A stretch of 64,000 nt of DNA from an uncultured Desulfobacter sp. (GTDB taxonomy: Bacteria; Desulfobacterota; Desulfobacteria; Desulfobacterales; Desulfobacteraceae): positions 192,001-256,000 of the forward strand of contig OY762069.1 of the NCBI GenBank assembly GCA_963665095.1, written 5' to 3'. The notes under the pieces are model-generated. The model was not told the origin of the DNA. It saw nothing but the letters and a program-made list of their open reading frames with translations, and searched no databases. A program made the translations under genes and the position numbers. Within the stretch, counting starts at the first letter, position 1. Every line of letters begins with the position of its first letter. Positions 17,898 to 60,294 of the stretch are shown here, in pieces.

Positions 17898-17914
17898 TGG
17901 CGTTATCCCTGGAA

Positions 17915-19708: not shown

Positions 19709-19758
19709 GTTGCGGTTCCCTTTTCATATAGTTGTGAGTTTAAATCATTCGCCCAAAT

Positions 19759-19797: not shown

Positions 19798-19854
19798 CCC
19801 TTTTTTTCCACGAAACACAGCTTACCCCTTTCCCGGCTTCGAGGGATAGGGTTA

Positions 19855-20060: not shown

Positions 20061-20122
20061 ACAACTCAATATCTAATCGCCCTTTGGGTGTCAATATGAA
20101 TATTAATTAAGTAAAAATTTTG

Positions 20123-33969: not shown

Positions 33970-34044
33970 CAAATAGAAACTGTCCACGATCCCTGGCTTT
34001 TATTTTAAAGTTTCCCATTGACATAATATAGAAAAGTCTACTAT

Positions 34045-34230
34045 GAAAGGCCATTCAGGTACTCGAAGGAGTGAAATACTTTAACGAGTTGAAAAGGGAA
34101 CCCTGTGGAAATCAGGGACGGGCCCCGCCGCTGTAATCGGGAACAAACGCTGCAAAAATGCCACTGTGAAATTTCATGGGAAGGCGCAGTAAGTAGGATG
34201 AACCGAGAGTCAGAAGACCTGCCTGGATAA
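34045..34230 (+). ncRNA. Cobalamin (AdoCbl) riboswitch 2
   Basis: CAGGT...AAAAGGGAACCCTGTGGAAATCAGGGACGGGCCCCGCCGCTGTAA...GCCACTG...GGGAAGGC...AGTCAGAAGACCTGCCT. Confidence 0.95.
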
Positions 34231-34291
34231 CATGGGATGCCGTACGTGGTAATGCGGAGCCCGCATGATCTTAAGGACGGAAAAAAGGGAC

Positions 34292-34331
34292 AGCCCTGGA
34301 TCGTTTGTATAAACGATTCAGGGCTTTTTTT
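34292..34331 (+). terminator. Riboswitch expression-platform terminator (attenuator)
   Basis: AGCCCTGGATCGTTT-GTAT-AAACGATTCAGGGCT followed by a T run. Confidence 0.8.
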
Positions 34332-34361
34332 GTTTGTAACGTGTAAACACGAGATCTGATA

Positions 34362-35117
34362 ATGAATATTCGCTGGTTGATACATACAAGCTTTGAGGGT
34401 GCCGTATTGATGTACACCCTGGCAGTGATCTTACACTTTTTCTCCGGCAAATCCAGGGGTGCGGTTCCCTGCCTGGTTCTGGGTCTTATGTTCAACGGCC
34501 TGTCCCTTGTTTTAAGATACTGGTCTTTCATCCCCCTTATGCCCCTGTTCCAGGGGCCGTTTTTTCTTCCCTTTGCCGTGGGCGTCATGGGGCTCAAATC
34601 TTATGTATCAGAAGCGCGCCGGCCCTTTTTCCTCTGGCTGGTCGCATCCCTGGCCTGGGTCTGCTATCTTTTCCCCAATGATTTCTACCTGCCCTACCTG
34701 CAGTTCAAGACCCCTTTTGCCCACGGCCTTTTTCTTTTCAGTATCATCGGGAAAGCCCTGTTTATCCTGGCAGGGGAAACAGGGCTTTCCCTGTTTTTAT
34801 GGCGGGAAAAATCCGGCCGGCCCAAAGAGATGGCCACCCGCCTTTTGTGGGGATTTTTTTTCTATACCCTGTCTGTCTTTTCCGGTGCGGTCTGGTCATG
34901 GCTGGGCTGGGGGTGCGCCCTGGTCTGGGACGACCCTGTGATTGCCGTTTCCATGGCGACCTGGCTCCTTTACGCCCTGCTGCTGCACCTCCACCTCACC
35001 CGGTTTTCAGCTCCGGCTGCCAAGGCGCTGATCCTCACGGCTGGGGCCGGCTGGATCATCTGTGCCGGTGTGATACCCGAACTTGGACCCTTCAGGACAC
35101 CGGGATGGCTGTCATGA
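34362..35117 (+). CDS. Divergent cytochrome c assembly protein (CcsA/ResC-like, WWD domain)
   Basis: Polytopic membrane protein with GAVWSWLGWGCALVWDDP...TWLLYALLLH. The start may be 34410. Confidence 0.75.
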   Translation: MNIRWLIHTSFEGAVLMYTLAVILHFFSGKSRGAVPCLVLGLMFNGLSLVLRYWSFIPLMPLFQGPFFLPFAVGVMGLKSYVSEARRPFFLWLVASLAWVCYLFPNDFYLPYLQFKTPFAHGLFLFSIIGKALFILAGETGLSLFLWREKSGRPKEMATRLLWGFFFYTLSVFSGAVWSWLGWGCALVWDDPVIAVSMATWLLYALLLHLHLTRFSAPAAKALILTAGAGWIICAGVIPELGPFRTPGWLS

Positions 35118-35962
35118 AGCTTGTTTCCCGGATCTGGCAGCTGGCCGGAAATATTTACCTGACCATGGGAATCATTGGATGCATGGTTGCGGACCTGGTT
35201 TGGGGATATGGAAAGCTCAAGGTTCACCAGGACATGTTTATCCCCATTAATGACAGGGGATTTACGGCATGGGCCGCTACCTGGGGCAGCGAGTCTCTTG
35301 CCATCACCCTCTGGCTTTTCATCCTGGTCGGGCTGATGGCACTTTTATCCATAAACACCTTTGTCTGTACTACAGACCGGGTCTTCACGCTGGTCCGTTT
35401 CCGGTACCGGTTTAAATCCTGGTGGCGTTTTTGCCTCAGATTGGGACCCCATGTCATGCACTATGCCATGCTCATCATGTTTCTGGGATACCTGGTATCC
35501 TACCTGTTCTCCGGGACCCATCTGGGAAAAATTCTTCTGCCGGAAAAAAGCATCTTCGTTAACGGGGTTAAAATCACCCTGAAGCAGATGGATATAAAAT
35601 ACTACGAGGGAACCCGGATGCCTCATCTCCAGGGACGGGTCATTGATGTCAAAGCAGCGATTCTGTTTGAAGATGCCCGGGGCAAATCGTTTCAAACCAT
35701 TGCCCATAACCGGCCGGCCATTTTCAGGGGCTTAAGCGTCCATTTAAGGGACTTCAGTCCCAAATACAAAGGCATGGGCATGGGCGGACCGCCCCGCCAA
35801 TATATCAATGTAACGGTAAAACAAGATCCCGGCATGAAATTTTATTTCGCCGGCATGGGCCTCTTTATTCTGGGTCTGTTCATGTATACCGGAGAAAAAC
35901 TGTTTGTTACCAAACCGGCTGCCGCTGCAAAGCGGGCCGTGCCGGTTGAGGAGGTGCAATGA
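35114..35962 (+). CDS. Short ResB/CcsB-like membrane protein
   Basis: TM segments, INTFVCT, GPHVMHYAMLIMFLG, NRP and KQDPGM..YFAG. ATGA overlap with the upstream gene fixes the start at 35114. Confidence 0.7.
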   Translation: MKLVSRIWQLAGNIYLTMGIIGCMVADLVWGYGKLKVHQDMFIPINDRGFTAWAATWGSESLAITLWLFILVGLMALLSINTFVCTTDRVFTLVRFRYRFKSWWRFCLRLGPHVMHYAMLIMFLGYLVSYLFSGTHLGKILLPEKSIFVNGVKITLKQMDIKYYEGTRMPHLQGRVIDVKAAILFEDARGKSFQTIAHNRPAIFRGLSVHLRDFSPKYKGMGMGGPPRQYINVTVKQDPGMKFYFAGMGLFILGLFMYTGEKLFVTKPAAAAKRAVPVEEVQ

Positions 35963-37104
35963 AGCGACATCCCGTATTCACACGGTTTGTTTTATATTAC
36001 TGTCTTGTTGTGCTCGCCGGAACCTTGGGATGTTCCCGGAATCAACAGGCAGAAGATCAGCCTGCCAAAGGAAAAGATATTGCTGAGACGACCTTTATGA
36101 GCATTGGCAGCTTTTCCGTCTCCAGCCTTTCCAACGGGACGACCCGGGTCAGGGACGGGTCAGGAAGAGAGCTGCTCCTGGTTCCAAGGCAGATGCAGGT
36201 CCCCGAGGGCACAGATCCGTCCCAGGTGGTGCGGACCCCGGTACGAAGGGTCGTGGCATACGGCTATTTTGACATCGCCATCCTCAAGGCACTGGGTGTC
36301 CTGGAAGACAGTCTGGTGGGGGTGATGGTACCCAGGGAAAAATGGATCATTCCCGAAGTGGTTAAGGGGATGGAAAGCGGCCGGATCGCCTACCTCGGTG
36401 ACTACAGTGGAATAGATATTGAACGGCTTCATCAGATCCAGCCGGACCTGGTTTTGACCTGGGATATGTCCATCATTCCCATTGCCGATGAGATGAAGGT
36501 GCCCTGCGCCATTACTACCACGCCTGTGGCCATGTGCCTGTCTGCCCGGATGAAGTTTGTCCGGTTCCTGGCCCCGTTTTTCAACAGGGAGGCAAAAGCT
36601 GAGCTCTTTTTTGACAGGATTTCCAACGCCCTGGAGCAGATCCGCATGGACACGGCAAAATCAGGATACAAACCCAAGGTCATGTGGGGGGATATCTATG
36701 AAAAAAGGGTGCTGGTGGAACCGGGCAATGCCTGGGTCGGAGAACTGGTGGAACTGGCCTTAAGCGATTACCAGTTCGAAGATGTATTCGGTACAAGCTG
36801 CATTGAAATCTCCCTGGAGCGATTTCTGGATTCCGGCCGGGACGCAGACATCTTTTTTACCTACCGGAATCCTGACAGCGGGGCCACCTCAAAGGAGGCC
36901 CTGGCCCGGGGCAACCCGCTGCTGGCAGGAATCAAGCCCATAAAAAGCGGCCGGGTCTACTCTCCGTTGCCCCACTATTATCAGTCCGGGGACAGGCTGG
37001 ACGAAATCCTTACGGATATTGCCGCCATCCTCCATCCGGAGAGCTACCCCGGTTATAAGATTCAATTTTTCAGAGAACTGCCGGACAAAGACCCCGCCTC
37101 ATAG
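35959..37104 (+). CDS. Cobalamin/iron-type ABC substrate-binding lipoprotein
   Basis: Lipobox TLGC, RTPVRRVV, DIERL..IQPDLV and DIAAILHPE. Confidence 0.85.
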   Translation: MKRHPVFTRFVLYYCLVVLAGTLGCSRNQQAEDQPAKGKDIAETTFMSIGSFSVSSLSNGTTRVRDGSGRELLLVPRQMQVPEGTDPSQVVRTPVRRVVAYGYFDIAILKALGVLEDSLVGVMVPREKWIIPEVVKGMESGRIAYLGDYSGIDIERLHQIQPDLVLTWDMSIIPIADEMKVPCAITTTPVAMCLSARMKFVRFLAPFFNREAKAELFFDRISNALEQIRMDTAKSGYKPKVMWGDIYEKRVLVEPGNAWVGELVELALSDYQFEDVFGTSCIEISLERFLDSGRDADIFFTYRNPDSGATSKEALARGNPLLAGIKPIKSGRVYSPLPHYYQSGDRLDEILTDIAAILHPESYPGYKIQFFRELPDKDPAS

Positions 37105-37130
37105 CGGTGCAAGATTTAAGGAGTAAACCC

Positions 37131-38192
37131 ATGACAACAACCCTTGCCCCTTCTGCCGATTTTACAGGGCACCGCAGGCTGATGCTGCGGCGGCGGACCA
37201 TCAGCTTTATTGTTTTCGGACTGGTGCTTGCCATGATCATGGCTGCCAATATCATGAACGGTTCTGTCAACATCAGACTGCCTGAGCTTTTATCCATCCT
37301 CGGGGGAGGCGATGCCGACAGTGTCAACGGATTCATCATATGGAAGATCCGGCTTCCCCGCGCCATTGCAGCCGCCTTAGGGGGCGGCTACCTGGCTGTG
37401 GCAGGACTCCTGCTCCAGGTATACTTCCGCAACCCCATTGTCGGCCCCTTTATTCTGGGCATCTCCTCCGGTGCCACCCTCACTGTTTCCCTGGTCATGC
37501 TGACCTCTTTGACCCTAGGCATGACGGTACTCAATCCTTACATGGCTACCCTGGCTGCCTTTGTGGGGGCATACGGGGTCATGCTCATTGTGGTGGGTAT
37601 TGCCGGGAAGGTGAAAAACGCGGTCACCCTGCTCATCGTGGGACTGATGATGGGGTACCTCTGCGGCTCGGTCACCGCCATCCTGACGGCCTTTGCGGAA
37701 AAGGAGAAGATCAAGGGCTTCGTACTCTGGCAGCTGGGCAGCTTTTCCGGCTTCCGGTGGACGGAAATTGAAATCCTCATTATTGCCGGCGGCCTCATCT
37801 GTGTCCTGGTCTACGCTCTGTCCAAGCCGCTGAATGCGTTTCTGCTGGGAGAGGACTACGCTGCCACCATGGGGGTCAACATAAGGCTTTTCCGCCTTTT
37901 GATCCTTTTGTCCTCCTGCGCCCTGGCCGGGATGATCACCTCCATGGCAGGTCCTGTGGCCTTTGTAGGGCTGGCCGTTCCCCATATGGTGCGCCTGGCC
38001 TTCGGCACCTCGGACAACAAGACCCTGATCCCGGGCTGTATCATGGTGGGCGCCGTTGTCACCAGCCTCTGCGATTTTATTGCACGGATGATTTTTTCTC
38101 CGGTGGAGCTGCCGATTTCCGCCATTACCGCCATGTTCGGCGCTCCCATTGTCATCAGTCTGCTCATGAAGCGAAAGGTAGGACTGTCATGA
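37131..38192 (+). CDS. FecCD/BtuC-family ABC permease
   Basis: IRLPRA, FRNPIVGPFILGISSGA, GPVAFVGLAVPH and ELPIS; AAGGAG RBS before ATG 37131. Confidence 0.9.
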   Translation: MTTTLAPSADFTGHRRLMLRRRTISFIVFGLVLAMIMAANIMNGSVNIRLPELLSILGGGDADSVNGFIIWKIRLPRAIAAALGGGYLAVAGLLLQVYFRNPIVGPFILGISSGATLTVSLVMLTSLTLGMTVLNPYMATLAAFVGAYGVMLIVVGIAGKVKNAVTLLIVGLMMGYLCGSVTAILTAFAEKEKIKGFVLWQLGSFSGFRWTEIEILIIAGGLICVLVYALSKPLNAFLLGEDYAATMGVNIRLFRLLILLSSCALAGMITSMAGPVAFVGLAVPHMVRLAFGTSDNKTLIPGCIMVGAVVTSLCDFIARMIFSPVELPISAITAMFGAPIVISLLMKRKVGLS

Positions 38193-39418
38193 AAAATACC
38201 CCTGTTCTGGCCACCGAGGATCTTACGGTGGGGTACCCGAAAAAGGATGTCCTCACATCCGTAAACCTGTCATTTTGCGCGGGCGAGTTCATCTCCCTTC
38301 TGGGTCCGAACGGTGTGGGAAAAAGCACCCTGCTCCGCACCCTATCCAAGCTTTTACCAAAGAGGAAAGGAGAGATATCTGTCCGGGGAAAGGCCCTTGA
38401 AAATTATACGGCGGACGCCCTGGCCAAGACCATGTCGGTCGTTCTTACCCACAAGTCCGTGCCCCCCCTGTGCCGGGTCTACGACTTTGTGGCAACCGGG
38501 CGCTACCCGCACACCAGCTGGACCGGGCATCTGACACAAAAGGATGATCAGGTCATCATGGATGCCGTGGCCATGGTCCATGCCCAGGATCTGATCCTCA
38601 GGGACATGATGACCCTGAGTGACGGGGAACGTCAGAAGGTCCTCATTGCAAGGGCACTGGCCCAGGAACCGGATATTATCCTCCTGGACGAGCCCACCAT
38701 GCACCTGGATCTCAAACACCGCATGGAAGTGATGTCCATCCTCAAGGAGATGTGCCGGACCAAGGGGATCTGCGTGGTGGCCTCCCTCCACGATATCGAA
38801 GTGGCCTCAAGAGTCTCGGACCGGGTGGTCCTGATCCGTAAAGGATGCATTAAAGGATTTGGTCCCCCCGAGGACGTTTTGGAAGAGGATACGGTTTCCG
38901 GGCTTTACGATTTTTCAGATGCCGGGTTCAGCCGGGTTCTGGGCAGCATTGAATTCAGAAGCCGGACCTCAAGGGACCGGGTCTTTGTTATCGGCGGCAT
39001 GGGCAGCGCCTCGGTTCTTTACCGATTGCTTTCCAAAAACGGTTACCAGGTGGCCACTGGTGTGCTGCTGAAAAACGACGTGGACTATCATGTGGCATCA
39101 TCTCTGAAACTCGATGCCCTGGCCCAGGACACCCTGGAAGCGGTGCTGCCTTCCAGTGTGGACAGGGCACTTGAAATGCTGAAAGGCTGCTGTGCTGTTG
39201 TGGATGCCGGCTTTGAGGCTGTCCCCCTCAACTGTGAAAATTTAAGATTGATCTCTGCGGCCAGGGCGCTTGGCAAGCCGGTATTCCGTCTCAACGGAAC
39301 CTGTCCCTGCACAAATGGCCACGCCTCGGACCGGCCTGAGGTGCCCGTGGAAATGACGGCAAATACCGAATCGGCTCTGGTGCAGTTAATCGAACGGGAA
39401 ATGGCACAGGCGTCATGA
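38189..39418 (+). CDS. BtuD-like ABC ATPase with a C-terminal extension
   Basis: GPNGVGKST, LSDGERQK and DEPTMHLD, plus about 150 extra aa starting RVFVIGGMGS. Confidence 0.88.
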   Translation: MKNTPVLATEDLTVGYPKKDVLTSVNLSFCAGEFISLLGPNGVGKSTLLRTLSKLLPKRKGEISVRGKALENYTADALAKTMSVVLTHKSVPPLCRVYDFVATGRYPHTSWTGHLTQKDDQVIMDAVAMVHAQDLILRDMMTLSDGERQKVLIARALAQEPDIILLDEPTMHLDLKHRMEVMSILKEMCRTKGICVVASLHDIEVASRVSDRVVLIRKGCIKGFGPPEDVLEEDTVSGLYDFSDAGFSRVLGSIEFRSRTSRDRVFVIGGMGSASVLYRLLSKNGYQVATGVLLKNDVDYHVASSLKLDALAQDTLEAVLPSSVDRALEMLKGCCAVVDAGFEAVPLNCENLRLISAARALGKPVFRLNGTCPCTNGHASDRPEVPVEMTANTESALVQLIEREMAQAS

Positions 39419-40506
39419 TCCCTGCCTACCTGATTCTCATGCTCACGGACAGATGCAACCTGTCCTGCCAATACTGCTACCTGGGCCAAAACAAAAAATC
39501 CATGCACAACGGCAAGGAGATATCCTCCCATCTCATTGACAAGGCCCTGTCCCTGTGGTTTGCCAACAAAAACAGATGGCGGATTCAGATCACCGGCGGG
39601 GAGCCGTTCCTGGCCAGAGAGCTCCTTGAATACACGGCAAAAAAGATAAGAGACGTATCTTTCAAGTCCCCTGTCTCAGTCCAGACCAACGCTACCCTCC
39701 TGAACCACAGGGATGCGGATCTGATCAAACGGTATCATCTGGAAATCGGGGTCAGTCTTGATGGGGATCCCGACATTCAAAACAGGGTCCGGGGAAAGGC
39801 GGCCGACACATTCAGGGGGATACGCTGCCTGGAAGAGGCAAAGATCCCCTTTAACGTAACCTGTGTGGTCTCTTCGGCCAATGCGGACCGGCTCCACCGC
39901 CTGGTCCTGGCTCTGGGCGGATTCTCCATGGCCCGGGGCATCGGATTCGACCTTCTGGTCTGCAAAGGCCGGGCCATGACTTCAGGTATCAGTCCGGCCT
40001 CGCCACAGGCGCTGACAACAGGGATCCGGAAACTCAAACAGGCCCTTACCATGGTTAATGCGGGGCGCAGCACCCCACTTGTACTCCGGGAGTTGGAAAA
40101 AATCAAATCGGCCCGCCGCGGCATCCGGCCGTCAGCATTCTGCCATGCCGCCAGTGGCAAGAGCCTTCTGGTCTCTCCGGGCGGAGAGCTTTACCCCTGC
40201 TCCCAGACCGCCTTTGACCCGGCCTTTTACCTGGGAACCCTGGAAAATAACCAAACGCAATCCAAGGCGGCTGCCGGAAGCGGAAAGCGGCCTCAGTGGC
40301 CCACTTTAGAAGAAAGAGCAAAAAATTTGTGTCCCTCCTGCAGCCTGAACGCCTGCTGCCAGGGGGAATGCCCCAGCCGTCTGTACTACGGCAACACAGG
40401 GGAAACGCCACTGGCCTGTACCCTGTATCAGGCCCTGGCGGACAATGAATCCAACAGGACGAGAACACGGGCTGCGGCCCGGCAATATCGAAAGGAACCC
40501 ATCTGA
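39415..40506 (+). CDS. Radical SAM/SPASM-domain protein
   Basis: CNLSCQYC, TGGEP, QTN and VSLDG; C-terminal C...GELYPC...CPSC...CQGECP...C. Confidence 0.9.
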   Translation: MIPAYLILMLTDRCNLSCQYCYLGQNKKSMHNGKEISSHLIDKALSLWFANKNRWRIQITGGEPFLARELLEYTAKKIRDVSFKSPVSVQTNATLLNHRDADLIKRYHLEIGVSLDGDPDIQNRVRGKAADTFRGIRCLEEAKIPFNVTCVVSSANADRLHRLVLALGGFSMARGIGFDLLVCKGRAMTSGISPASPQALTTGIRKLKQALTMVNAGRSTPLVLRELEKIKSARRGIRPSAFCHAASGKSLLVSPGGELYPCSQTAFDPAFYLGTLENNQTQSKAAAGSGKRPQWPTLEERAKNLCPSCSLNACCQGECPSRLYYGNTGETPLACTLYQALADNESNRTRTRAAARQYRKEPI

Positions 40507-43500
40507 TGGAAAAAGCGTTTTCAATGGCCTATTTCACGGCAGTTGGTATGGAAATTCCGTCCCTGAGCCAGGGAATCGAACAGTTTACAGAAGGTGGCGG
40601 GCAGATTCAGGTTCATGCCAAAACCTCAACCCAGCTGTTTGACGAAAAGCAGATCAAGGGATTTTGCAACAGGTGCCTGGAATCGGATATTATCATTATC
40701 GGCCTCCACGGCGGCCGGGAATCCTTTCCCGGATACAAGATTCTGGGAGAACAGTTGGCGGCGCATAAAAAGGAAGGCGGCACCCTTCCCTGGATCCATA
40801 TTCAGCCCTCAGGCTCAGACGAGGACTCCATTGAATGGGCACAGGAGTGGTCCACGCACTTTGGCACACCGGTCTGGGATAAGGTTTCCCAATACCTTGA
40901 CAACGGGGGTACCATTAATTTCTTCCGCCTCATCTGCTTTCTTGAGTCTGAAATTTTCGACCTTAAAAAAACGATCCCTCCGGCTGTGCCGGTTCCTTTT
41001 GATGGCATTTACCACCCAGATATCCAGGGGATTCCGGAAATTGAAGACTATCTCAAAACGTATATCAAACCCGGCCGCATCACCGTTGGGCTGTGGTTCA
41101 GCCAAATTTACTGGTTGAACAACGATGTGGATTACATCGATGCCATGATTCGGTCGGCCGAACGTCTGGGCGCAAACGTGATCCCTGTTTTCCACATGCG
41201 GTACAAGGACGCATCCAGGGGAAACCCCGGGGCCGAGTATGTGGCCCGCACCTTTTTCATGAAGGACGGCAAACCCATCATCGATGTGCTGCTCAGCCCA
41301 ATGATGTTTTCTTTGACCCTCATGGACCCCTCCTGCAAGGAACTCTTTGCCCGGCTCAACGTCCCGGTCATTCAGGCCATGGTGACCATGCAGCCCTATC
41401 AGAGCTGGAAGGAAGAGGTCCAGGGGATGAGTACCATGGAAGTGGGCCTTTGTGCTGCCCAGCCCGAGTTTGACGGCAATCTGATCTGCGGGCCCGTGGC
41501 CAGCCGGGAACAGGATAAAACCGACCCGCTGACAGGCGCACTTCTTGCCCGGTACGCCGCCATCCCGGAACGGACCGAACGGGTGGTGAACCTGGCTGTT
41601 AACTGGGCGAAGCTTGCCAAAAAGGAAAATGCCGAAAAAAAAGTGGCCATTATTTTTCACCACTATCCCCCGCGAAACGACCGCATCGGTTGCGCTGCCG
41701 GCCTGGACAGCTTTGTCAGTGTCAAACTCCTGCTGGAACGGATGAAGGAGGCAGGATACGTGGTGAACACCCTTTATGAGGACGGGGATGCCCTGGCCCG
41801 GGAGATGCTGTCCAAGATGACCTGTGACCAGCGCTGGCTTCTGCCCGAACAGATGCACGAGCGGGCCGCCGCCCTGGCCGGCCCGGACGAATACCACCCC
41901 TGGCACGAGGGCCTGCCCCAACCCATCCGGGATAAACAGAACGGGGACTGGGGAAAGATGCCCGGCGACCTGTTCGTCCATGATAACGAGATGATTTTTC
42001 CCGGCACCATGAACGGCAACGTCTTTATTACCATCCAGCCCCCCAGGGGATACTTTGAAAATATCGATAAGATCTACCATGACATGTATCTGTCCCCGCC
42101 CCATCATTACCTGGCCTATTACCGCTATATCAAACATTCGTTCAAGGCCGATGCCGTGATTCACGTGGGGACCCACGGCTCTTTGGAATGGCTGCCGGGC
42201 AAGGCCCTGGGTCTGTCCGAAGAATGCTATCCGGATCTGTCCATCATGGACCTTCCCAATATCTACCCCTATGTCATCAACGACCCAAGCGAAGGGACCC
42301 AGGCCAAACGAAGAAGTTATTGCTGCATCATCGACTATATGACCCCGGTCTTTACCAATGCGGACCTCTACGAAAGCCTGGCGGATGTGGAAAACCACGT
42401 GAAATCCTACTTTGACGCCAAAAGCGCCGATCCTGCCAAGATAGAGATCCTGCAGCCCATGATCTGGGAGGCCGTGGTGGAGGCCAACCTGAACGATGAC
42501 CTGGACATGACCCGGGAAGAGGCGTTTCAGGACTTTGACGGATTTCTGGAAAAACTCCACGACTACCTGGGGGAGCTGGGCGACACCATGATCAACGACG
42601 GACTCCATACCCTGGGCCAGGTCCCCCAGGGTGAACAACTGGTGGAGCTTCTGGTCCAGCTCACCCGGATCGCCAACGGCAGTGTACCCTCCCTGCGGGA
42701 GGCCGTGGTCCTGTCCCTGGGCCATGACTATGACCATCTGCTGGAAAACAGAGGGAAAATGGTGGATAAGGCAAGGGGAATGACCGGTTCCATGCTGATC
42801 CAGCAGGCCCACAGTCTGGCATTAAATCTGGTCAGTGCCATGTCGGAAACCGGTTATGACGGTGACCCGGATAAAATCGCCGCCGCTGCCAGGCAAATCA
42901 TCACCGCGCCTCATCCCGACACCCTTGAAGTACTCTCCTATCTTGCAGACTCTGTGGTCCCCAATCTGAGGAAAACCACAGAGGAGCTGGATGCGGTCAT
43001 GACCGCACTGGACGGGGGCTTTGTCAGGCCCGGCCCGTCAGGATCACCCACCCGGGGCCAGGCAGACATCCTTCCCACGGGCCGCAATTTTTATTCTGTA
43101 GACCCCCAGAAGATCCCCACTCCCGCGGCCTGGGAGGTAGGCATGCGTCTGGGGGACGCCCTGTTGCAAAGGTACATTGATGAAACCGGTGGTTACCCCA
43201 GGAGCGTGGGGATGCTGGTTTACGGCAATCCCACCATGAAAACCGGCGGAGACGATATCGCTGAAATTTTTTATCTGATGGGCGTCAAACCCGTCTGGCA
43301 CCCGAGCAACGGGATTGTCAAGGGGGTTGAAATCATCCCCCTGGAAGAACTTGGACGGCCCCGGATTGACGTTCTGCCAAGAATTTCAGGCTTTTTCAGG
43401 GATTCATTCCCCCTGCTTGTGGAACGGATTGACGATGCTTTCCGCATGGTGGCCTCCCTGAACGAACCCATGGAAACCAATATGATCCGGCGTCATGTCT

Positions 43501-44288
43501 ACAAAGATATGGAGACCTATAAACTGGAAGGTATGAACGAGGAAGAAGCGTTCAGGGAAGCCTCCTTCAGGGTGTTCGGCTGCCCGCCGGGCACCTATGG
43601 CGCGGGTGTGGCCGAACTTGTGGAATCCAAGAACTGGGAAACCCAGGAGGACCTGGGCAACAACTACATCCGCTACTCCAGCCATGCCTACGGCCAGGGC
43701 AGTTACGGACGGCAGAAGCCCAATACCTTCCGGACCCTGTTGTCCCGCATGGACGTCACTGTGAAAAACGAGGATTCCCGGGAATACGATATGATGTCCT
43801 GTACCGACTACTACAACTATTACGGCGGCCTCATCGTGGCCGGCAAAACCGTTACCGGCAAATACCCCCTCTCCCTTATGGGTGACTCGTCCGATCCCAA
43901 AAGAGTAAAGATGCGTACCACTGCCGAGGAGGCCAAGCATATTCTGCGGTCCCGTCTCACCAACCCTAAATGGATAAAGGGAATGATGCGTCACGGATAC
44001 AAGGGCGCCGGCGACATCTCCCACATGATGGACGTGGCCCTGGGCTGGGATGCCACGGCCGAGGTCATGGAAGACTGGATGTATGCGCAGATGGCCCGGG
44101 CCTATATCATGGACCCGGAGGTCAAGGAATGGATGGAAGAGGTCAACCCCTATGCCCGCCAGAATATCCTGGACAAACTCCTGGAAGCCATATCCAGGGG
44201 CATGTGGCATGCGGACAAGGAAATGGAAGATGAACTCAGACAGGAGTATCTTGAAATTGAAGGTGAAATTGAAGCACTTACAGAATAA
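40506..44288 (+). CDS. cobN: CobN/BchH-type chelatase large subunit 1
   Basis: QPEFDG, YPPRND, HVGTHGSLEWLPGK, EGTQAKRR, GLHTLG, LPTGRNFY, NPKWI and HGYKGA. Confidence 0.92.
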   Translation: MEKAFSMAYFTAVGMEIPSLSQGIEQFTEGGGQIQVHAKTSTQLFDEKQIKGFCNRCLESDIIIIGLHGGRESFPGYKILGEQLAAHKKEGGTLPWIHIQPSGSDEDSIEWAQEWSTHFGTPVWDKVSQYLDNGGTINFFRLICFLESEIFDLKKTIPPAVPVPFDGIYHPDIQGIPEIEDYLKTYIKPGRITVGLWFSQIYWLNNDVDYIDAMIRSAERLGANVIPVFHMRYKDASRGNPGAEYVARTFFMKDGKPIIDVLLSPMMFSLTLMDPSCKELFARLNVPVIQAMVTMQPYQSWKEEVQGMSTMEVGLCAAQPEFDGNLICGPVASREQDKTDPLTGALLARYAAIPERTERVVNLAVNWAKLAKKENAEKKVAIIFHHYPPRNDRIGCAAGLDSFVSVKLLLERMKEAGYVVNTLYEDGDALAREMLSKMTCDQRWLLPEQMHERAAALAGPDEYHPWHEGLPQPIRDKQNGDWGKMPGDLFVHDNEMIFPGTMNGNVFITIQPPRGYFENIDKIYHDMYLSPPHHYLAYYRYIKHSFKADAVIHVGTHGSLEWLPGKALGLSEECYPDLSIMDLPNIYPYVINDPSEGTQAKRRSYCCIIDYMTPVFTNADLYESLADVENHVKSYFDAKSADPAKIEILQPMIWEAVVEANLNDDLDMTREEAFQDFDGFLEKLHDYLGELGDTMINDGLHTLGQVPQGEQLVELLVQLTRIANGSVPSLREAVVLSLGHDYDHLLENRGKMVDKARGMTGSMLIQQAHSLALNLVSAMSETGYDGDPDKIAAAARQIITAPHPDTLEVLSYLADSVVPNLRKTTEELDAVMTALDGGFVRPGPSGSPTRGQADILPTGRNFYSVDPQKIPTPAAWEVGMRLGDALLQRYIDETGGYPRSVGMLVYGNPTMKTGGDDIAEIFYLMGVKPVWHPSNGIVKGVEIIPLEELGRPRIDVLPRISGFFRDSFPLLVERIDDAFRMVASLNEPMETNMIRRHVYKDMETYKLEGMNEEEAFREASFRVFGCPPGTYGAGVAELVESKNWETQEDLGNNYIRYSSHAYGQGSYGRQKPNTFRTLLSRMDVTVKNEDSREYDMMSCTDYYNYYGGLIVAGKTVTGKYPLSLMGDSSDPKRVKMRTTAEEAKHILRSRLTNPKWIKGMMRHGYKGAGDISHMMDVALGWDATAEVMEDWMYAQMARAYIMDPEVKEWMEEVNPYARQNILDKLLEAISRGMWHADKEMEDELRQEYLEIEGEIEALTE

Positions 44289-46362
44289 CCTGAAAGACCA
44301 AAGTCAGGCAAACCGCCTCTTTCCCTTTTCAGCCGTTATCGGCCAGGAGAACCTTAAGCTGGCGTTGATACTCAACGCTGTAAACCCCGGAATCGGCGGT
44401 GTGCTGATCCGGGGGGAAAAGGGCACGGCAAAATCAACCATTGTCCGGGCGCTTTCGGACCTGCTGCCGGAAATCACCGTCCGCTCAGGATGTGGATTCA
44501 ACTGCAGCCCGGATGATCCGCAGCAATGCCCGGGATGCGGGAGGACAAACGGGAGCGGCAGCCTTGTCACACGGCGTAAAAAAGTGGTCACCCTGCCCCT
44601 GAACGCCACCGAAGACCGGGTGGCAGGCGGCCTGGATTTTGAGCAGGTGTTAAAACAGGGTAAAAGGGTGCTGCAGCCAGGTCTTCTGGCAAAAGCCCAC
44701 CAGGGTATTCTCTATGTGGATGAGATCAACCTTCTGGATGACCATATCGTGGATATCATCCTGGATGCATCTGCCTCAGGGGAAAACCGGGTGGAGCGTG
44801 AAGGGATCTCCCTGTCCCATCCTTCCCGGTTTCTCCTGGTGGGCACCATGAATCCCGAGGAAGGGGATCTGCGGCCCCAGCTGCTGGACCGGTTCGGATT
44901 CTGCGTGGAAGTGGCAGGGGAAACCGACCCTGAACAGCGGGTGGCCCTGATGGTCCAGCGGGACGCCTTTGACCTGGATCCGGCAGGGTTCCGAAAAGAA
45001 CATGAATCCGGCACCCGGGAACTGTCCCAAAGCATTCAGCGGGCAGAGGCGCTTCTACCCACCGTCCGGATGCCCAAACACCTGCGTACCTTTATCGCGG
45101 AACTCTGCGCCGGCCATCATGTGGCCGGCCACCGGGCAGACCTGGTCCTTGAGCAGGGGGCGCTTGCCCATGCCGCATTAAAGGGCCGTACCGAAGTCAT
45201 CCTGGACGACATCCAGGCGGTATCTCTTTTTGCTCTGCTCCACAGGAAACAGGAGGAGAGCGATCCCCCGCCTCCGCCGCAGGAGCCGCCTGAAGATCAG
45301 GATCAGGACCCGCCCGAAAACCAAGAGGAAGAGGACCAGGAAGAAGAGAATCAGGAAGAAGAAGACCAGCAGGAAGAGGCGCCCCCTGAAAACGAGGAGG
45401 AGGCAGCAGAACCGCCGCCCCGGGAAGAGGACAAAAGCCCTGAAGACGAGGCCGAGCCTGAAGATCCAGACCAGGATGAAGACAGGGACATTCCTCCACC
45501 CCCCGAGGACAGTGACGCCCAGACCCTCTTTGAGATCGGGGACCCCTTTAAAGTCAAAAAAATTGAAACTTGCAAGGACCGCACCTTAAGAAGGGGCTCA
45601 GGCCGGCGTTCACGGACCCGGGTGAGCCAGAAGCAGGGCCGGTACGTGAAAAGCACCATGAACCTGGGCCGGAATGATATCGCCTTTGACGCCACCTTAC
45701 GGGCGGCCGCCCCTTTCCAGAAGAACAGGGATATTCCCGAGGGGCTCTGCCTGGCCCTGACCCCGGCGGATGTCCGGGAAAAGATCCGCGAGAAAAAAAT
45801 GGGGAACTTCCTGCTCTTTTTAGTGGATGCCAGCGGCTCCATGGGGGCCAAAGGAAGGATGACAGCATCCAAGGGGGCCATTTTGTCCCTGTTGCTGGAT
45901 GCCTACCAGAAACGGGACAAAGTGGCCATGATCTCCTTTAGAAAAACCGAGGCCGTGGTAAACCTGCCTGTCACCTCCAGTATCGAGCTTGCGGCCCAGC
46001 ACCTTGCACAGATGCCTGTGGGCGGCAGGACCCCCTTGTCCGCCGGTCTGGACAAGGCCTACGGGATGATCAAAAGCGTCCAGTATCGCGATCCGGCCTC
46101 CCGGCCCATTGTGATTATCATTACCGACGGCAAGAGCAACCTGGCTTTGGGAGAAGGCAGACCCGTGGACGAGGCCCTCATGATGGCAAGCCGAATGGGA
46201 GAGGATGAGCGGGTGACCTATATCGTTGTGGACACCGAGCCCCAGGGTCCTGTCATGTTCGGCCTGGCCAGGAATCTGGCCGCCGCCGCCAGTGCCCGGT
46301 ACTATAAAATTGATGACCTGAAAAGCGACACCCTGGTCAGTCTGGTAAAGGAAAACCAGTAA
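44251..46362 (+). CDS. bchD: Chelatase subunit D (AAA+, acidic/Pro linker, vWA); start approximate
   Basis: FPFSAVIGQ, GEKGTAKST, YVDEINLL, LLDRFG, an acidic Pro-rich linker, MIDAS DASGSM, GGRTPL and ITDG. Confidence 0.88.
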   Translation: MKLKVKLKHLQNNLKDQSQANRLFPFSAVIGQENLKLALILNAVNPGIGGVLIRGEKGTAKSTIVRALSDLLPEITVRSGCGFNCSPDDPQQCPGCGRTNGSGSLVTRRKKVVTLPLNATEDRVAGGLDFEQVLKQGKRVLQPGLLAKAHQGILYVDEINLLDDHIVDIILDASASGENRVEREGISLSHPSRFLLVGTMNPEEGDLRPQLLDRFGFCVEVAGETDPEQRVALMVQRDAFDLDPAGFRKEHESGTRELSQSIQRAEALLPTVRMPKHLRTFIAELCAGHHVAGHRADLVLEQGALAHAALKGRTEVILDDIQAVSLFALLHRKQEESDPPPPPQEPPEDQDQDPPENQEEEDQEEENQEEEDQQEEAPPENEEEAAEPPPREEDKSPEDEAEPEDPDQDEDRDIPPPPEDSDAQTLFEIGDPFKVKKIETCKDRTLRRGSGRRSRTRVSQKQGRYVKSTMNLGRNDIAFDATLRAAAPFQKNRDIPEGLCLALTPADVREKIREKKMGNFLLFLVDASGSMGAKGRMTASKGAILSLLLDAYQKRDKVAMISFRKTEAVVNLPVTSSIELAAQHLAQMPVGGRTPLSAGLDKAYGMIKSVQYRDPASRPIVIIITDGKSNLALGEGRPVDEALMMASRMGEDERVTYIVVDTEPQGPVMFGLARNLAAAASARYYKIDDLKSDTLVSLVKENQ
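45322..45378 (+). repeat. Imperfect 15-bp tandem repeat in the ChlD linker (QEEED/QEEEN)
   Basis: CAAGAGGAAGAGGAC CAGGAAGAAGAGAAT CAGGAAGAAGAAGAC CAGCAGGAAGAG. Confidence 0.6.
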
Positions 46363-46403
46363 GGCTCAGGGCAACTAATATAAACAGAAGGAGTATTAAA
46401 ACA

Positions 46404-47474
46404 ATGACCCAACACTTTCCCTTCACCGCCATCGTGGGCCAGGATGATATGAAACTGGCCCTGATTCTCAATATTATTAATCCCACCCTGTCAGGGGTTC
46501 TGATCCGTGGGGAAAAGGGGACGGCCAAATCCACGGCTGTCCGGGCTCTGGCCGAAATCCTGCCCATGATCGACCATGTCAAGGACTGTCCCTTCAGGCT
46601 GGCCCTTTCCGAAGCCGGTGCCGTCTGTAAAGACTGCATGGCCACAACGTGTCCCAACCAGGGAGAAAAAGATCCTGGGACAGTAAACGGTGGTCGCATG
46701 GAAACCGAACAGAGCGGCATCCGGGTCATTGAACTGCCCGTGGGTGCCACCGAGGACCGGGTGGTGGGGACCATGGACCTGGAGCATGCATTGAAAAAGG
46801 GAGAAAAGCGGATTGAGCCAGGCCTTCTGGCCGCAGCTCACCGTGGGATTCTCTACGTGGACGAGGTCAACCTGCTGGACGATCATGTGGTGGATGTGCT
46901 CCTGGACTCCGCCGCCATGGGGGTCAACACCATTGAGCGGGAGGGCGTCTCCTTTTCCCACCCGGCAAGGTTTACCCTGGTGGGCACCATGAACCCGGAG
47001 GAAGGTGAGCTGCGGCCGCAACTGCTGGACCGCTTCGGCCTTTGCGTAAATATCGGAGGCATCCGGGATGTGAAAGCGCGGGTAAAGGTGATGGAGTACC
47101 GGGCAAAATTTGATGAGGATCCCGAAATTTTCAACCGGGAGTGGGAAGCTGCAAGCCGGGATCTTTCCGGCAGGATTGAGAAGGCCACCAGCCTTTACCC
47201 CAAGGTTTCCATTGCAAGGGAACTGCTCTTTGAGATCGCCTCTTTTTGCCTGGACGTGGGCGTGGACGGCCACAGGGGAGACATCATCATGCTGAAAACT
47301 GCCAAAACCCTTGCTGCCTGGGAGGGAAGAACTCAAGTCGAAGCCAATGACATCGAAATTGCGGCCAGGCTGGTTCTTCCCCATAGAATCCGCAGAAAAC
47401 CCCTCCAGGAAATTGCCCAGGATATCGGTGCGGTCCGGGAAACCAACCGGGCCAAACGGGATGAAAAGGTGTAA
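46404..47474 (+). CDS. bchI: Chelatase AAA+ subunit I
   Basis: FPFTAIVGQ, GEKGTAKST, GATEDRVVG, YVDEVNLL, LLDRFG and VDGHRGD. Confidence 0.92.
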   Translation: MTQHFPFTAIVGQDDMKLALILNIINPTLSGVLIRGEKGTAKSTAVRALAEILPMIDHVKDCPFRLALSEAGAVCKDCMATTCPNQGEKDPGTVNGGRMETEQSGIRVIELPVGATEDRVVGTMDLEHALKKGEKRIEPGLLAAAHRGILYVDEVNLLDDHVVDVLLDSAAMGVNTIEREGVSFSHPARFTLVGTMNPEEGELRPQLLDRFGLCVNIGGIRDVKARVKVMEYRAKFDEDPEIFNREWEAASRDLSGRIEKATSLYPKVSIARELLFEIASFCLDVGVDGHRGDIIMLKTAKTLAAWEGRTQVEANDIEIAARLVLPHRIRRKPLQEIAQDIGAVRETNRAKRDEKV

Positions 47475-47477
47475 TTT

Positions 47478-48500
47478 ATGGCATCCATCTCCATTGAAAA
47501 TTTAACCAAGACCTACCGCAAGGTCCGGGCCCTGGATCAGGTCAGCCTGACCGTGAGACAGGGGGAACTCTTTGCCTATCTGGGTCCCAACGGTGCCGGA
47601 AAGACCACCACCATAAGGATTCTTACAGGCATGACCCGGTTTGATACGGGGGAATGCCGTATCAACGGGTTTGATATCCAAAAGGATGAGGCCCGGGCCA
47701 AGGAGCAGTACGGTCTGGTCTCCCAGGTCGTCAACCTGGACCAGGAACTGACGGTAAAGGAAAACCTGCTGATCCACGGCCTGATGTACGGCATGACGCT
47801 GTCCGCCATCAACTGCAAGACCCGTGAGCTTCTGGAATACGTGGAGATGTCCGACCGGCTGAAAGACCCGGTCAGGACACTGTCCGGGGGGCTGAAACGG
47901 CGCCTGATGATCGCAAGGGCTCTGCTCCACGAGCCCTCCATCCTCTTCATGGATGAGCCCACCGTGGGCCTGGATGCTGCTATCCGGCGCCGGATCTGGG
48001 CTTTGATCCGCAAGATTCAGGCCGCCGGAACCACCATTTTTCTTACGACCCATTATATTGAGGAGGCCGAGTTTCTGGCAGGCCGGGTGGCTTTCCTGGA
48101 CAAGGGGCGCATCGTTACCCTGGACACCCCGGCCAGCCTCATGGAAGCCATCGGGGCCTGGGCCATCGACTGCCTCACCCCTTCCGGGATGGAAACTGTG
48201 TACTTCAGGGACCGGAAAGCGGCAGAAGCCTTCAATCATGACAATTCCCAGCAGTATACCCTGCGCCGGGTCAACCTGGAGGATGCCTTTCTGGCCATAA
48301 CGGGAAAAAAGACCCAGGCAGGCCCTGGAGGTACGGAAGGCCACGGTCACGCCAGTGCTCACGGAGGCCATGGCGGGCACAGCCACGCCTCCGGCAGTCA
48401 CGGACACTCCCAAAGCACCAGCCACGGGCATACCAGCCACGGACACTCCCACGGAAGCCATGGCAGCGGCCATACCCAACAGGGCACACGCGGCCATTGA
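47478..48500 (+). CDS. ABC-2 (DrrA/NodI-type) ATPase with a His-rich C-terminal tail
   Basis: GPNGAGKTT, LSGG, DEPTVGLD and TTHYIEEA; 16 His in the last 53 aa. Confidence 0.9.
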   Translation: MASISIENLTKTYRKVRALDQVSLTVRQGELFAYLGPNGAGKTTTIRILTGMTRFDTGECRINGFDIQKDEARAKEQYGLVSQVVNLDQELTVKENLLIHGLMYGMTLSAINCKTRELLEYVEMSDRLKDPVRTLSGGLKRRLMIARALLHEPSILFMDEPTVGLDAAIRRRIWALIRKIQAAGTTIFLTTHYIEEAEFLAGRVAFLDKGRIVTLDTPASLMEAIGAWAIDCLTPSGMETVYFRDRKAAEAFNHDNSQQYTLRRVNLEDAFLAITGKKTQAGPGGTEGHGHASAHGGHGGHSHASGSHGHSQSTSHGHTSHGHSHGSHGSGHTQQGTRGH

Positions 48501-48514
48501 AAGGAAATATCATT

Positions 48515-49252
48515 ATGTTACGCAGTATTATTGCCGTTTATTTGCGGGAAATGCTGATTTTAAAACAAAGATTGAACCGGCAGATTCCCTCCTGGTCGGT
48601 ATCCCCCCTGCTCTACCTCATCGCCTTTGGGTATGCCGCCGGCTATTCGGTGCAGGTGGAGGGCCACACCTACATGGCCTTTCTCATTCCGGGCCTTATG
48701 GCCATGAACAGCATGACCCAGGCCTTTGCCATTGCAGGCGACGTCAATATTGCCCGGTTCTACTGGCATACCTTTGAAGAGTTTCAGGCCGCCCCTGTAT
48801 CCAAGACCGCCTATGTGACGGGCGAGGTCCTGGCCGGAATGACCCGGGCCCTGTTATCGGTGCTGGTGATCATGCTCATGGCCCTGGTATTCCGGGTGGA
48901 CATCCACTATAACGTTGCATTTCTCATCGGAATCCTGCTCAACAGTTTTGTTTTCGCCTCCCTGGCCGTGGGCCTGGCCATGGTGGTCAAGTCCCATGCA
49001 GACCAGTCCCTGCTCACCTCCTTTGTGATCACGCCCATGGCCTTTTTGGGGGGTACCTTCTTTCCGGTGGACCGGCTGCCGGCCTGGGCCGGGACTTTGC
49101 TTTCCCTTCTGCCCCTGACCCATGCCTCAAAGGCCATCCGGGATGCCTGTCTGAACAGCAGGGCGGACATGGGATCCTGGCTGATTCTGCTGATAACCGG
49201 CATTGCCTTTTTCATCATGAGCGTGGCCCTGGTGGAGAAAGCCAAAGACTGA
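48515..49252 (+). CDS. ABC-2 type permease
   Basis: YMAFLIPG, FLGGTFFP and LPLTHA; six TM segments. Confidence 0.88.
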   Translation: MLRSIIAVYLREMLILKQRLNRQIPSWSVSPLLYLIAFGYAAGYSVQVEGHTYMAFLIPGLMAMNSMTQAFAIAGDVNIARFYWHTFEEFQAAPVSKTAYVTGEVLAGMTRALLSVLVIMLMALVFRVDIHYNVAFLIGILLNSFVFASLAVGLAMVVKSHADQSLLTSFVITPMAFLGGTFFPVDRLPAWAGTLLSLLPLTHASKAIRDACLNSRADMGSWLILLITGIAFFIMSVALVEKAKD

Positions 49253-49264
49253 GGAAAAACGATC

Positions 49265-50914
49265 ATGACAGAGACATTAAAGACCGCACTCATCCACCTC
49301 AACGTCAGGTATAAAGACGTGCCAGGAAACGCGGAACGTCTTCTGGCCCTCAACCATGAGGCCGCCCGGAATGGGCACCGGATCATCGTCAATACAGAAA
49401 TGGGCCTGTCCGGATACAGCTTTTCTTCAGTTGAAGAGATTCGGCCCCATACCCTGACCCTCTTTTCAGAACCGGTCAGGGCTTTGTCCGATATTGCCCG
49501 GGAGTTTAAGGTCTATATCATCCTGGGCCTGGCCCTGGAAGACCCTTCTACCTCCATCCTCACCAACTCAGCCATCGTATTGGGTCCGGACGGGAAGCCC
49601 CTGCTGACCTATGACAAGATCAATGCTGAAGCCCGGTGGGCCTGTCCCGGAGACCCCTGCCAGGACAATGTTTTTTCCACCCCCTGGGGACAGGTTGGGG
49701 TCGTGATCTGCGCAGACTCCTACCACGGTCTCTTGATGCGGCAAACTGCCCTGAGAGGGGCGGAACTTATCCTGGTTTCCGCCAACTGGCCCCTGGTCGG
49801 GCTGGATCCGAGGGAGATCTGGTGCATGAGGGCCCGGGAAAACGGCGTATATATTGCCGCCTGCAACCGGGCCGGTACGGATCTGACCATGGAGTGCCAT
49901 ACCGCCCCTTCAGGGCTCTTTTCCCCGGACGGCATCCCGGTCGTCTGCAAGACCCATCAGGACTCCACGGTTATGAGCGTTGAAATTCCTTTGCATGACG
50001 GAAAAATTGCATCCAGAAGAAAAGAGATCATGGCCCGGCGCACGCCCAGTCGCTACACGCCCATTTATCTGGAAACCCGCTATGCCACAAACGACGCCCA
50101 GGTCCTGACTGACTGGCACGGCCTGAACCCGCCGGGCCTTGTTTGCGTGACCGCCTTTACCGCGTTGCCCGGCAACCCGGGTACCAGGCTCACCTGTGAG
50201 GCTGTACGCCGTGTCATATCCTTATACACAGACCGACTGATCCGTGATCCCGGGAATTTGGGCAGTTCCGAATCGACCCTGATGGTCTTCCCGGTAATCG
50301 ATGGGGAGGCATCACAGATCGACCGGCTGCTTCAATGGCTGGAACATGAGATTCCCGATACCGGACTGGCTCTGTGTCTGGGACGGATCAGTGATTCCGG
50401 TCTTCAGGAGATCATTTTTACAGGCCCGGGACAGGACCCGGCGCATCCTTTAGGAAATATAGTGCTGCGCCACAGCCGGGACACCAAGGGTACCGGGCCG
50501 GGCCCTGAGGGCGTGACCATTGTGGACAGCGGTAACTTTAGACTTGGGCTGTGCCTGCCGGAAGCCCTGCTCCATCCGGAAACCGGCATTGCCCACGCCA
50601 AACTGGGATGCGATCTTCTGGTCTCCAGCGTGGACAGCCTGGATCCCCTTGACCGGCTGGTCATGGCCGGCCGGTGCACAGACACCCTTGCCGTGGCCGT
50701 GGCCGGGACGGACACCTCGTTTATATGCGCTCCGCCCAAGAGCCATGAACGGTTTGCCGAAGCCCTGGTCCACAGAGCATCCCAAGGCTCTGACATGGCC
50801 GCCTGCCAGGCAAAGATGACACTGGATACCGGAGAAATCCGTAAAAAAAACCACCAGAACCGAATCGATTATCACACCCTTTTGGCCGGTTTCCGGCCCG
50901 AAGAATCCTCATGA
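49265..50914 (+). CDS. Carbon-nitrogen hydrolase (nitrilase family) with a second degenerate domain
   Basis: E-K-C triad contexts NTEMGLSGY, YDKIN and ICADSY, plus RARENG. The C-terminal half has LGLCLPE...LGCDLLV. Confidence 0.8.
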   Translation: MTETLKTALIHLNVRYKDVPGNAERLLALNHEAARNGHRIIVNTEMGLSGYSFSSVEEIRPHTLTLFSEPVRALSDIAREFKVYIILGLALEDPSTSILTNSAIVLGPDGKPLLTYDKINAEARWACPGDPCQDNVFSTPWGQVGVVICADSYHGLLMRQTALRGAELILVSANWPLVGLDPREIWCMRARENGVYIAACNRAGTDLTMECHTAPSGLFSPDGIPVVCKTHQDSTVMSVEIPLHDGKIASRRKEIMARRTPSRYTPIYLETRYATNDAQVLTDWHGLNPPGLVCVTAFTALPGNPGTRLTCEAVRRVISLYTDRLIRDPGNLGSSESTLMVFPVIDGEASQIDRLLQWLEHEIPDTGLALCLGRISDSGLQEIIFTGPGQDPAHPLGNIVLRHSRDTKGTGPGPEGVTIVDSGNFRLGLCLPEALLHPETGIAHAKLGCDLLVSSVDSLDPLDRLVMAGRCTDTLAVAVAGTDTSFICAPPKSHERFAEALVHRASQGSDMAACQAKMTLDTGEIRKKNHQNRIDYHTLLAGFRPEESS

Positions 50915-50957
50915 TACTGCCCCCTGGCCACATACAGGGGGCAAAGGAGTCCTTAAG

Positions 50958-54770: not shown

Positions 54771-54809
54771 AAGCCCGTAATCCGCAACCATAAACGGAAG
54801 GAAAACATT

Positions 54810-60277: not shown

Positions 60278-60294
60278 CCAAAGGAGATAAAATC

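Follow-up and report, generated by a model that had tools for sequence, protein, structure and literature searches.

Judged by its sequence, the pair of miniature ccsA and resB genes described here is a real, conserved and non-canonical variant of CcsBA, lying outside the System II cytochrome c synthases by three tested features. It co-occurs with a whole module of binding protein, FecCD permease and CobN-type chelatase, not with the binding protein alone. From the sequences compared, what is new is this co-inheritance, together with a site in the binding protein at which Cys alternates with an in-frame TGA.

Results

A mini CcsA/ResB pair behind a cobalamin riboswitch

In the window (the whole stretch of 64,000 nucleotides, from an uncultured Desulfobacter sp.), the pair forms the first two genes after a cobalamin riboswitch, as the preliminary description of this DNA had it: the RF00174 aptamer spans 34040-34240 and the genes start from 34362. 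The features of the region are:

34040..34240, + strand: cobalamin riboswitch aptamer (RF00174, 121.8 bits)
34292..34335, + strand: intrinsic-terminator-like hairpin with T run (15 pairs plus T tail)
34362..35117, + strand: mini CcsA-like protein, 251 aa, 8 predicted membrane helices (PF01578, 30.9 bits)
35114..35962, + strand: mini ResB/CcsB-like protein, 282 aa (PF05140, 45.5 bits)
35959..37104, + strand: periplasmic binding protein, lipoprotein-type N-terminus (PF01497)
37128..38192, + strand: FecCD/BtuC-type permease (PF01032, 253.8 bits)
38189..39418, + strand: ABC ATPase of the importer
39415..40506, + strand: radical SAM protein, matching no named family
40506..44288, + strand: CobN-type chelatase subunit (TIGR02257 above cut-off)
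44293..47474, + strand: ChlD-like and ChlI-like chelatase motor subunits
47478..61464, + strand: likely remainder of the operon, with the genes named below

The PF01578 score of the mini CcsA-like protein is barely above the cut-off. The ResB-like protein, earlier put at about 280 aa, would extend to 285 aa if an in-frame ATG at 35105 were taken as its start, and the two ORFs overlap via ATGA. The stem of the terminator-like hairpin spans 34292-34325; the region around it (34235-34375) has a z of -3.39, and this hairpin is likely the off switch of the riboswitch. Further downstream, 47478..61464 encodes an ABC-2 exporter pair, a nitrilase-family protein, two further CobN-like ORFs, a TonB-dependent receptor (58532-60277) and a weak match to a CbiZ/CbiS-like hydrolase; going solely by their short gaps, these genes are likely co-transcribed with the upstream module. 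That the operon holds no c-type cytochrome, as first remarked from the letters, agrees with the finding that none of the 16 same-strand proteins from 34362 to 61464 contains CXXCH or CXXCK; genome-wide, 91 ORFs carry CXXCH. The same genome also has two CbiK-family matches, so the module would seem to be an extra route of salvage.

Some observations concern the surroundings. The apparent operon combines three CobN-like ORFs with a single ChlI/ChlD pair (40506-58535), and its ABC-2 ATPase (47478-48500) has a long tail rich in His, Gly and Ser that is possibly metal-binding. A second cobalamin riboswitch (19848-20066) heads another tetrapyrrole salvage block on the minus strand (11560-20066), comprising a TonB receptor, a binding protein, FecCD, an ATPase and NifH/NifD/NifK-like (CfbC/DPOR-like) genes, and just upstream of this riboswitch lies a presumed transposase-like fragment (20441-21127, minus strand). 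A binding protein and a BchB/NifD-like gene (61471-63994, minus strand) converge on the operon end.

Residues kept and lost

PDB sequence searches with mini CcsA, mini ResB and the family alignment returned no relevant chain, and the His residues were therefore mapped from the mini family to the genome's canonical CcsA (profile alignment, hhalign 99.6%) and from there to Helicobacter hepaticus CcsBA, in the residue numbering of Table 1 of PMC11322641. The motifs singled out earlier (WSWLGWGCALVWDDP, LLLH, GPHVMH and FAHG) are all present, and the alignment to CcsBA that had been suggested as a check recovers three of the four His. Both transmembrane ligands are kept, as proposed: H209 of mini CcsA (34986, in LLLH) corresponds to TM-His1 (H858), and H116 of mini ResB (35459), the second His of GPHVMH, corresponds to TM-His2, with H113 of the same motif being an extra His. 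H121 of mini CcsA (34722, in FAHG) matches P-His1 (H761), again in line with the earlier reading. It retains the Pro-x9-His spacing of P-His1, but its distance from the G-Y-A-x-F motif exceeds that in canonical unfused CcsA by two residues, and because of this register shift relative to the helix motif its geometry is only putative. One automatic alignment set the canonical P-His1 two columns away from H121; we gave preference to the profile alignments and to the Pro-x9-His count (62/72 in branch A and 1/38 in branch B of the clade introduced below, 33/38 among canonical/outside sequences). The missing ligand is P-His2 (H897): where a GLHSY-type C-terminal His had been reported absent, mini CcsA reads GPFRT, and no His occurs beyond residue 211. 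By the clustering of basic residues in alternate loops, the predicted outer face carries H121, the WWD loop and the C-terminus, which has no His.

The WWD-like loop (W178-D191; 34893-34934) is indeed altered. W828 and W833 are kept and the A829 position is Ser; K842/E843 are absent, here and in all 110 clade sequences, and mini CcsA also lacks W837 (V/I/L instead) and V889/N890 (P-E/D instead). According to PMC6299221, W828, A829, W833, K842 and E843 are required for CcsBA synthase activity, K842 and E843 each being so. In PMC10663686, the first-Cys pocket consists of K842, E843, V889 and N890, and the second-Cys pocket of W828, A829, S832, W833 and the LMPVL loop. By this division, the first-Cys pocket of mini CcsA is gone and the second is largely retained (A829 as Ser/Ala, the LMPVL loop as YLPxL). 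Against TIGR03144, mini CcsA scores 31.5 bits vs a cut-off of 187.6. Mini ResB has one periplasmic beta domain (about 134-237), without the large insertions of the 467-aa canonical ResB.

Predicted structures

The AlphaFold models are confident (pLDDT 82 for mini CcsA, 89 for mini ResB). As the best whole-chain fold match of the mini CcsA model we obtained CcmF (6zmq; Z 19.3, rmsd 3.5, 237 residues), followed by CcsBA 753-890 (Z 12.1, rmsd 2.4, 124 residues) and CcmC (Z 10.7, rmsd 2.8, 120 residues); these are the top three, with unrelated bundles beginning at Z 10.2. The mini ResB model matches CcsBA (E 2e-6) and CcmF (E 6.6e-6). A WWD-type loop on a four-helix core, by which the CcsA/CcmC/CcmF superfamily is recognized, is present in the mini CcsA model.

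The likeness to Thermus thermophilus CcmF extends to the WSY..LGWG wording of the loop and to the kept W251 position (W201 in mini CcsA). Unlike CcmF, the mini pair consists of two chains, the second being ResB-type by Pfam with PF16327 (CcmF_C) not among the Pfam matches; the W214 position is F165 in mini CcsA and F/Y in most clade members, and there is no P-His2. A CcmF_C gene was found in none of the 16 carrier genomes searched. A split CcmF, which might be suggested by the order of the genes, the LGWG in the loop and the rank among fold matches, was rejected on account of the ResB-type second gene and the Phe at the W214 place.

A separate clade with two branches

Phylogeny, another of the checks put forward earlier, sets the mini proteins apart. 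The tree comprises 148 sequences no shorter than 225 aa, drawn from the locus proteins, from representatives at 50% identity and from hits of canonical type; this set leaves out 21 close homologues and includes some near-duplicate rows. In the tree, the 110 mini proteins form a single clade with a FastTree support of 1.0. Branch B (38 sequences) has a support of 0.82, and branch A (72 sequences) one of 0.21, for which reason the latter is best read as 'clade minus branch B'.

Across the clade, TM-His1 is found in 110/110 sequences, and TM-His2 in 32/32 branch-A and 6/7 branch-B ResB-like proteins, the exception coming from a locus with fragmented ORFs; the extra His113 is present in all 32 of the branch-A ResB-like proteins. 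P-His1 occurs in 64/72 branch-A and 0/38 branch-B sequences, and 37/38 of the branch-B sequences have W-x-x-R-H. A P-His2-type motif is seen in 1/72 sequences of branch A and 0/38 of branch B, compared to 37/38 outside the clade, a clean loss that is blurred by three branch-A sequences with a His one residue off this place and by 21/38 branch-B sequences with a His near the last-helix end, scattered over several columns. W-x2-3-K-E is found in 28/38 canonical sequences and in neither branch (0/72 and 0/38). W201 is invariant (110/110) but also present in 36/38 canonical sequences and thus does not separate the models discussed below. A mid-membrane Lys/Arg takes the place of the canonical Tyr in 53/72 branch-A sequences. 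Together, both branches retain the inner haem site along with the WWD tryptophans and have lost the attachment apparatus. In branch A, the second-Cys pocket and P-His1 are strongly conserved, which would fit an outer tetrapyrrole site under any model.

Two damaged copies were noted: a truncated mini ccsA (G099:C1:3500501-3501007) in a genome without the remaining module, and a branch-B ccsA broken by TAG (L076/L088, genome G326). Both are probably cases of decay.

Genomic company of the pair

Scanning for loci with the family alignment yielded 39, and with a single sequence none. Relatives are present in Desulfobacula toluolica and Desulfatibacillum. A survey of neighbourhoods, likewise proposed beforehand, has the pair travelling with the binding-protein/FecCD/CobN module. 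At the 31 branch-A loci, the binding protein lies directly after ResB in 29, and FecCD is found in 25, CobN in 18 and a TonB receptor in 17 within the fetched DNA, several loci ending early. A cobalamin riboswitch is located directly upstream in 21 of these loci, via one or two upstream genes in another five (26/31 combined) and at a distance in one; it was not found in the remaining four, three of which end close upstream. Among 151 family genomes, mini CcsA (counted at E < 1e-40) is encoded in 19, one copy being truncated, the binding protein in 19, FecCD in the same 19 as the binding protein, and CobN in 18; mini CcsA and the binding protein are found together in 18 of 19 carriers. The operon is split between ResB and the binding protein in two genomes (G011, G066) and before FecCD in a third (G017), with all parts kept. 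In a sample of 301 phylum genomes, the binding protein occurs in 15, with the mini pair adjacent in 14 and the fifteenth at a contig edge. A divergent member (L082:67-12000, genome G262) has a His near the P-His2 place, and its downstream genes are NifB-like and NifD-like, replacing CobN.

Branch B keeps other company. No B12 riboswitch was found at the 11 branch-B loci scanned (L038-L045, L084, L085, L088). Most branch-B loci adjoin a TonB receptor and signal-peptide-bearing Oxidored_molyb/TP_methylase fusions, and several adjoin an APC permease, ExbBD-TonB, FmdE and proteins that we presume to be TupA-like. The position of the pair beside a molybdopterin-oxidoreductase-type protein presumably resembles the MsrPQ layout. 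An exported tetrapyrrole-methylase domain is odd in itself. A conserved-Cys partner for branch B was considered and rejected, the Cys of D-R-C being Ser in several copies.

Is the pair a synthase after all? Canonical CcsA scores above cut-off in all 30 mini-pair carriers tested, and the own genome holds its copy at a distance of ~1 Mb, in a pair of canonical resB (467 aa) and ccsA (277 aa) that shows WGKYWSWDPKETW and GLHSY. A second CcsA-family gene (L002, G000:C1:5261483-5262088) lies between precorrin-2 dehydrogenase-like and hemA-like ORFs, in what we take to be a HemX-like arrangement. With canonical CcsA in every carrier tested and no CXXCH protein in the operon, it is most improbable that the pair serves as an ordinary cytochrome c synthase. 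In common with System II CcsBA/ResB-ResC (H. hepaticus; 7s9y, 7s9z), it has CcsA and CcsB homology, the four-helix core and the periplasmic beta domain, as well as TM-His1, TM-His2, P-His1 and W828/W833/W839/D840. Unlike CcsBA, it lacks P-His2 and K842/E843, with W837 turned into V/I/L and V889/N890 into P-E/D; its gene order is ccsA-resB vs resB-ccsA, its ResB has 282 aa vs 467 aa, and it stands under a B12 riboswitch and is always an extra copy.

The idea of a dedicated System II synthase that, in the manner of Wolinella NrfI or CcsA1, would serve some unusual c-type cytochrome encoded elsewhere can draw on the evident homology to CcsA (hhalign 99.6%), on the retention of three His out of four and of the chief WWD tryptophans, on the near-miss His of three branch-A sequences and on the 91 CXXCH ORFs of the genome. 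It is hardly credible in view of the complete lack of W-x2-3-K-E, whose Lys and Glu are each required in CcsBA (PMC6299221), the operon without CXXCH/CXXCK substrate, and a B12 control and importer linkage that do not fit. The earlier suggestion that the pair is not a cytochrome c synthase is, as regards a canonical one, well supported by the losses listed above and the 30/30 co-occurrence with canonical CcsA.

The second part of that suggestion, a corrinoid translocator, is less well supported: a FecCD-type importer is present in every family carrier, and the features kept in both branches (the TM-His pair and the WWD tryptophans) fit a resident inner haem at least as well as a corrinoid channel. 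As a specific version of it, CcsBA might run in reverse, such that a porphyrin or corrinoid precursor passes inward from the WWD face via the TM-His site to CobN. The channel-forming core is intact in the comparison with CcsBA 753-890, the mid-membrane Lys/Arg and His113 are frequent or invariant in branch A, the B12 riboswitch heads 26/31 loci directly or through one or two genes, and CobN is co-inherited. Still, we regard such a channel as unlikely. All 19 family genomes with the binding protein have FecCD, so that a second import route is not needed; an energy source for inward movement is not evident; corrinoids far exceed haem in bulk and polarity; and no branch-B locus scanned has the riboswitch.

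An efflux valve through which the haem or free porphyrin from CobN-type (de)chelation would leave appears decidedly improbable. With the outer ligands lost, exported haem could leave, and the CobN-like BtuS and HmuS proteins reportedly remove iron from haem. However, an ABC-2 exporter pair is already part of the operon, the pair stays linked to the binding protein and importer in L082, with no CobN within the 12 kb read, and the first CobN scores above the cobaltochelatase cut-off. Bacteroidota loci for CobN-like BtuS/HmuS are similar in combining a TonB receptor with a CobN-like protein for metalloporphyrin salvage, and differ, as far as titles and descriptions of this iron-from-haem chemistry go, from the present one with its B12 control, ChlI/ChlD motors and mini-CcsBA pair.

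A Cys/TGA site in the binding protein

Neither the Cys/Sec binding protein nor the branch without both outer His had featured in the preliminary description. Cys281 of the binding protein is encoded by TGC at 36799 (36799-36801). Of 28 related loci, 17 have Cys at this site and 11 have an in-frame TGA (L020:12330, L021:3027, L022:3693, L023:3934, L024:12437, L027:2672, L028:2618, L029:3050, L030:12517, L031:10307, L036:9887), with no other residue found; past the TGA, the reading frame continues for 96-109 conserved residues in ten loci, and one runs off the contig. Fourteen phylum-sample loci, overlapping in part with the 28-locus set, have Cys in 12 and TGA in 2 cases at the same site. A hairpin ~12 bases downstream of the TGA is common to the TGA loci. 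By free-folding energies, this SECIS-like hairpin has a median of -8.8 kcal/mol (nine distinct TGA stretches, not independent) vs about -4 for Cys stretches, medians being used as one empty stretch (L078) distorts the mean. selA was found in 3/5 TGA-carrying draft genomes and in the own genome. The protein has exactly one invariant mature-chain Cys/Sec, near the C-terminal lobe; C183, also present, varies in the Sec forms. Where Cys and Sec replace each other, the residue is usually engaged in redox chemistry or metal binding. In the solved binding protein 4ovk, a Trp is aligned with Cys281, at a position presumably lining the cleft, as in BtuF.

In its operon setting, a PF01497 binding protein together with a FecCD permease and its ATPase behind a cobalamin riboswitch, the system is like BtuFCD, which is not known to have a CcsBA-like partner. 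Sec in a transporter binding subunit has precedent in BtuF, SaoB and SaoX, whose motifs are given as CxxU, CUxxT and UxP, respectively, in PMC9312934 and PMC13188914; unlike these, the motif around the present site is G-x-[SAT]-U-[ILM]-E. This motif is absent from the main-text rows consulted of the selenoprotein tables in PMC9312934, PMC13188914, PMC12013277 and PMC8318568, and no NCBIfam model matches the binding protein. Its relatives probably represent a new selenoprotein family, unlisted in those rows.

With a single Cys/Sec on the partner and a first-Cys pocket lost beside a kept second, the pair might instead export haem b and attach it by one thioether or selenoether bond to Cys/Sec281, or hand it over non-covalently, to yield a periplasmic haem protein. 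We find this rather doubtful. No His follows Cys281 (SCIEISLE), and at its presumably cleft-lining position a fixed haem would obstruct a protein inherited together with a permease. P-His1, moreover, is absent in 8/72 branch-A and all branch-B sequences, and P-His2, lost here, is needed for attachment in CcsBA (PMC11322641). Sec-containing c-type cytochrome families, which would offer precedent for such a product, are listed in PMC9312934 and PMC13188914.

Discussion

What might the mini pair do? The reading that we tentatively favour, while giving it somewhat less than an even chance, is that the pair holds a stable inner haem b and acts as a CcmF-like conduit, reducing a cobalt tetrapyrrole bound to the Cys/Sec protein. 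Mini CcsA and mini ResB would assemble like CcsB-CcsA, and, the outer site being incomplete, one haem b would stay between the two inner His. When B12 is scarce, the cargo, a corrinoid precursor or another cobalt tetrapyrrole, would enter the periplasm through TonB receptors, and the binding protein would grip its metal there through Cys/Sec. As gene order alone suggests, the loaded binding protein may dock at the WWD face, where H121 could serve as a second, optional ligand. Co(III)-S/Se bonds exchange slowly until reduced, and a one-electron reduction would loosen the metal-S/Se bond, comparable to the reduction and release of CcmE haem proposed for CcmF. FecCD would then import the cargo for CobN/ChlID and other enzymes.

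This haem b conduit is favoured because the inner site is kept and the attachment apparatus lost, and because both halves of the idea have a counterpart in characterized proteins: CcsBA variants that lack P-His still contain between half and all of their haem, which has been read as retention at the TM site (PMC11322641), and in CcmF, a stable TM haem is proposed to reduce a periplasmically delivered metalloporphyrin, ejecting the protein adduct (PMC10663686). The conduit also agrees with the importer already present in the module, with the invariable Cys or TGA of the partner and with the presumably MsrPQ-like layout in branch B. Other points weigh against it, among them co-inheritance with the module as a whole and not with the binding protein alone. 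The CcmF tryptophan pair is, by alignment, only half present (W201, but F165 at the W214 place) and not diagnostic; the mid-membrane Lys/Arg could equally serve a channel for more acidic cargo; and one kept Cys pocket beside a one-Cys partner would fit one-bond haem attachment.

On a broader view, the clade may constitute a fourth branch of the CcsA/CcmC/CcmF superfamily that has left cytochrome c making and acts on a carrier Cys/Sec, be it by reductive release or by one-bond haem attachment, serving B12-controlled salvage in branch A and, in branch B, redeployed without outer His next to uptake genes of the tungsten/molybdenum type; we consider the chances of this being so as evenly balanced. 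To our knowledge, the characterized members of the CcsA family all make c-type cytochromes. In the open-access literature, we found no account of a CcsA/ResB pair linked with a cobalamin riboswitch, CobN and TonB-dependent genes, and the available portion of a work on deltaproteobacterial B12 regulons (PMC545781) does not mention the mini pair.

The clade represents a natural deletion series, in which the inner His are kept and one or both outer His and the first-Cys pocket are lost, and hence haem holding, movement and attachment should be separable in a 530-residue system. The relatives of the binding protein form a probable new selenoprotein family, whose TGA genes annotation pipelines would split into two ORFs. 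In the sulfate reducers that carry it, the pair suggests a so far undescribed step, located in the periplasm, in the salvage of cobalt tetrapyrroles.
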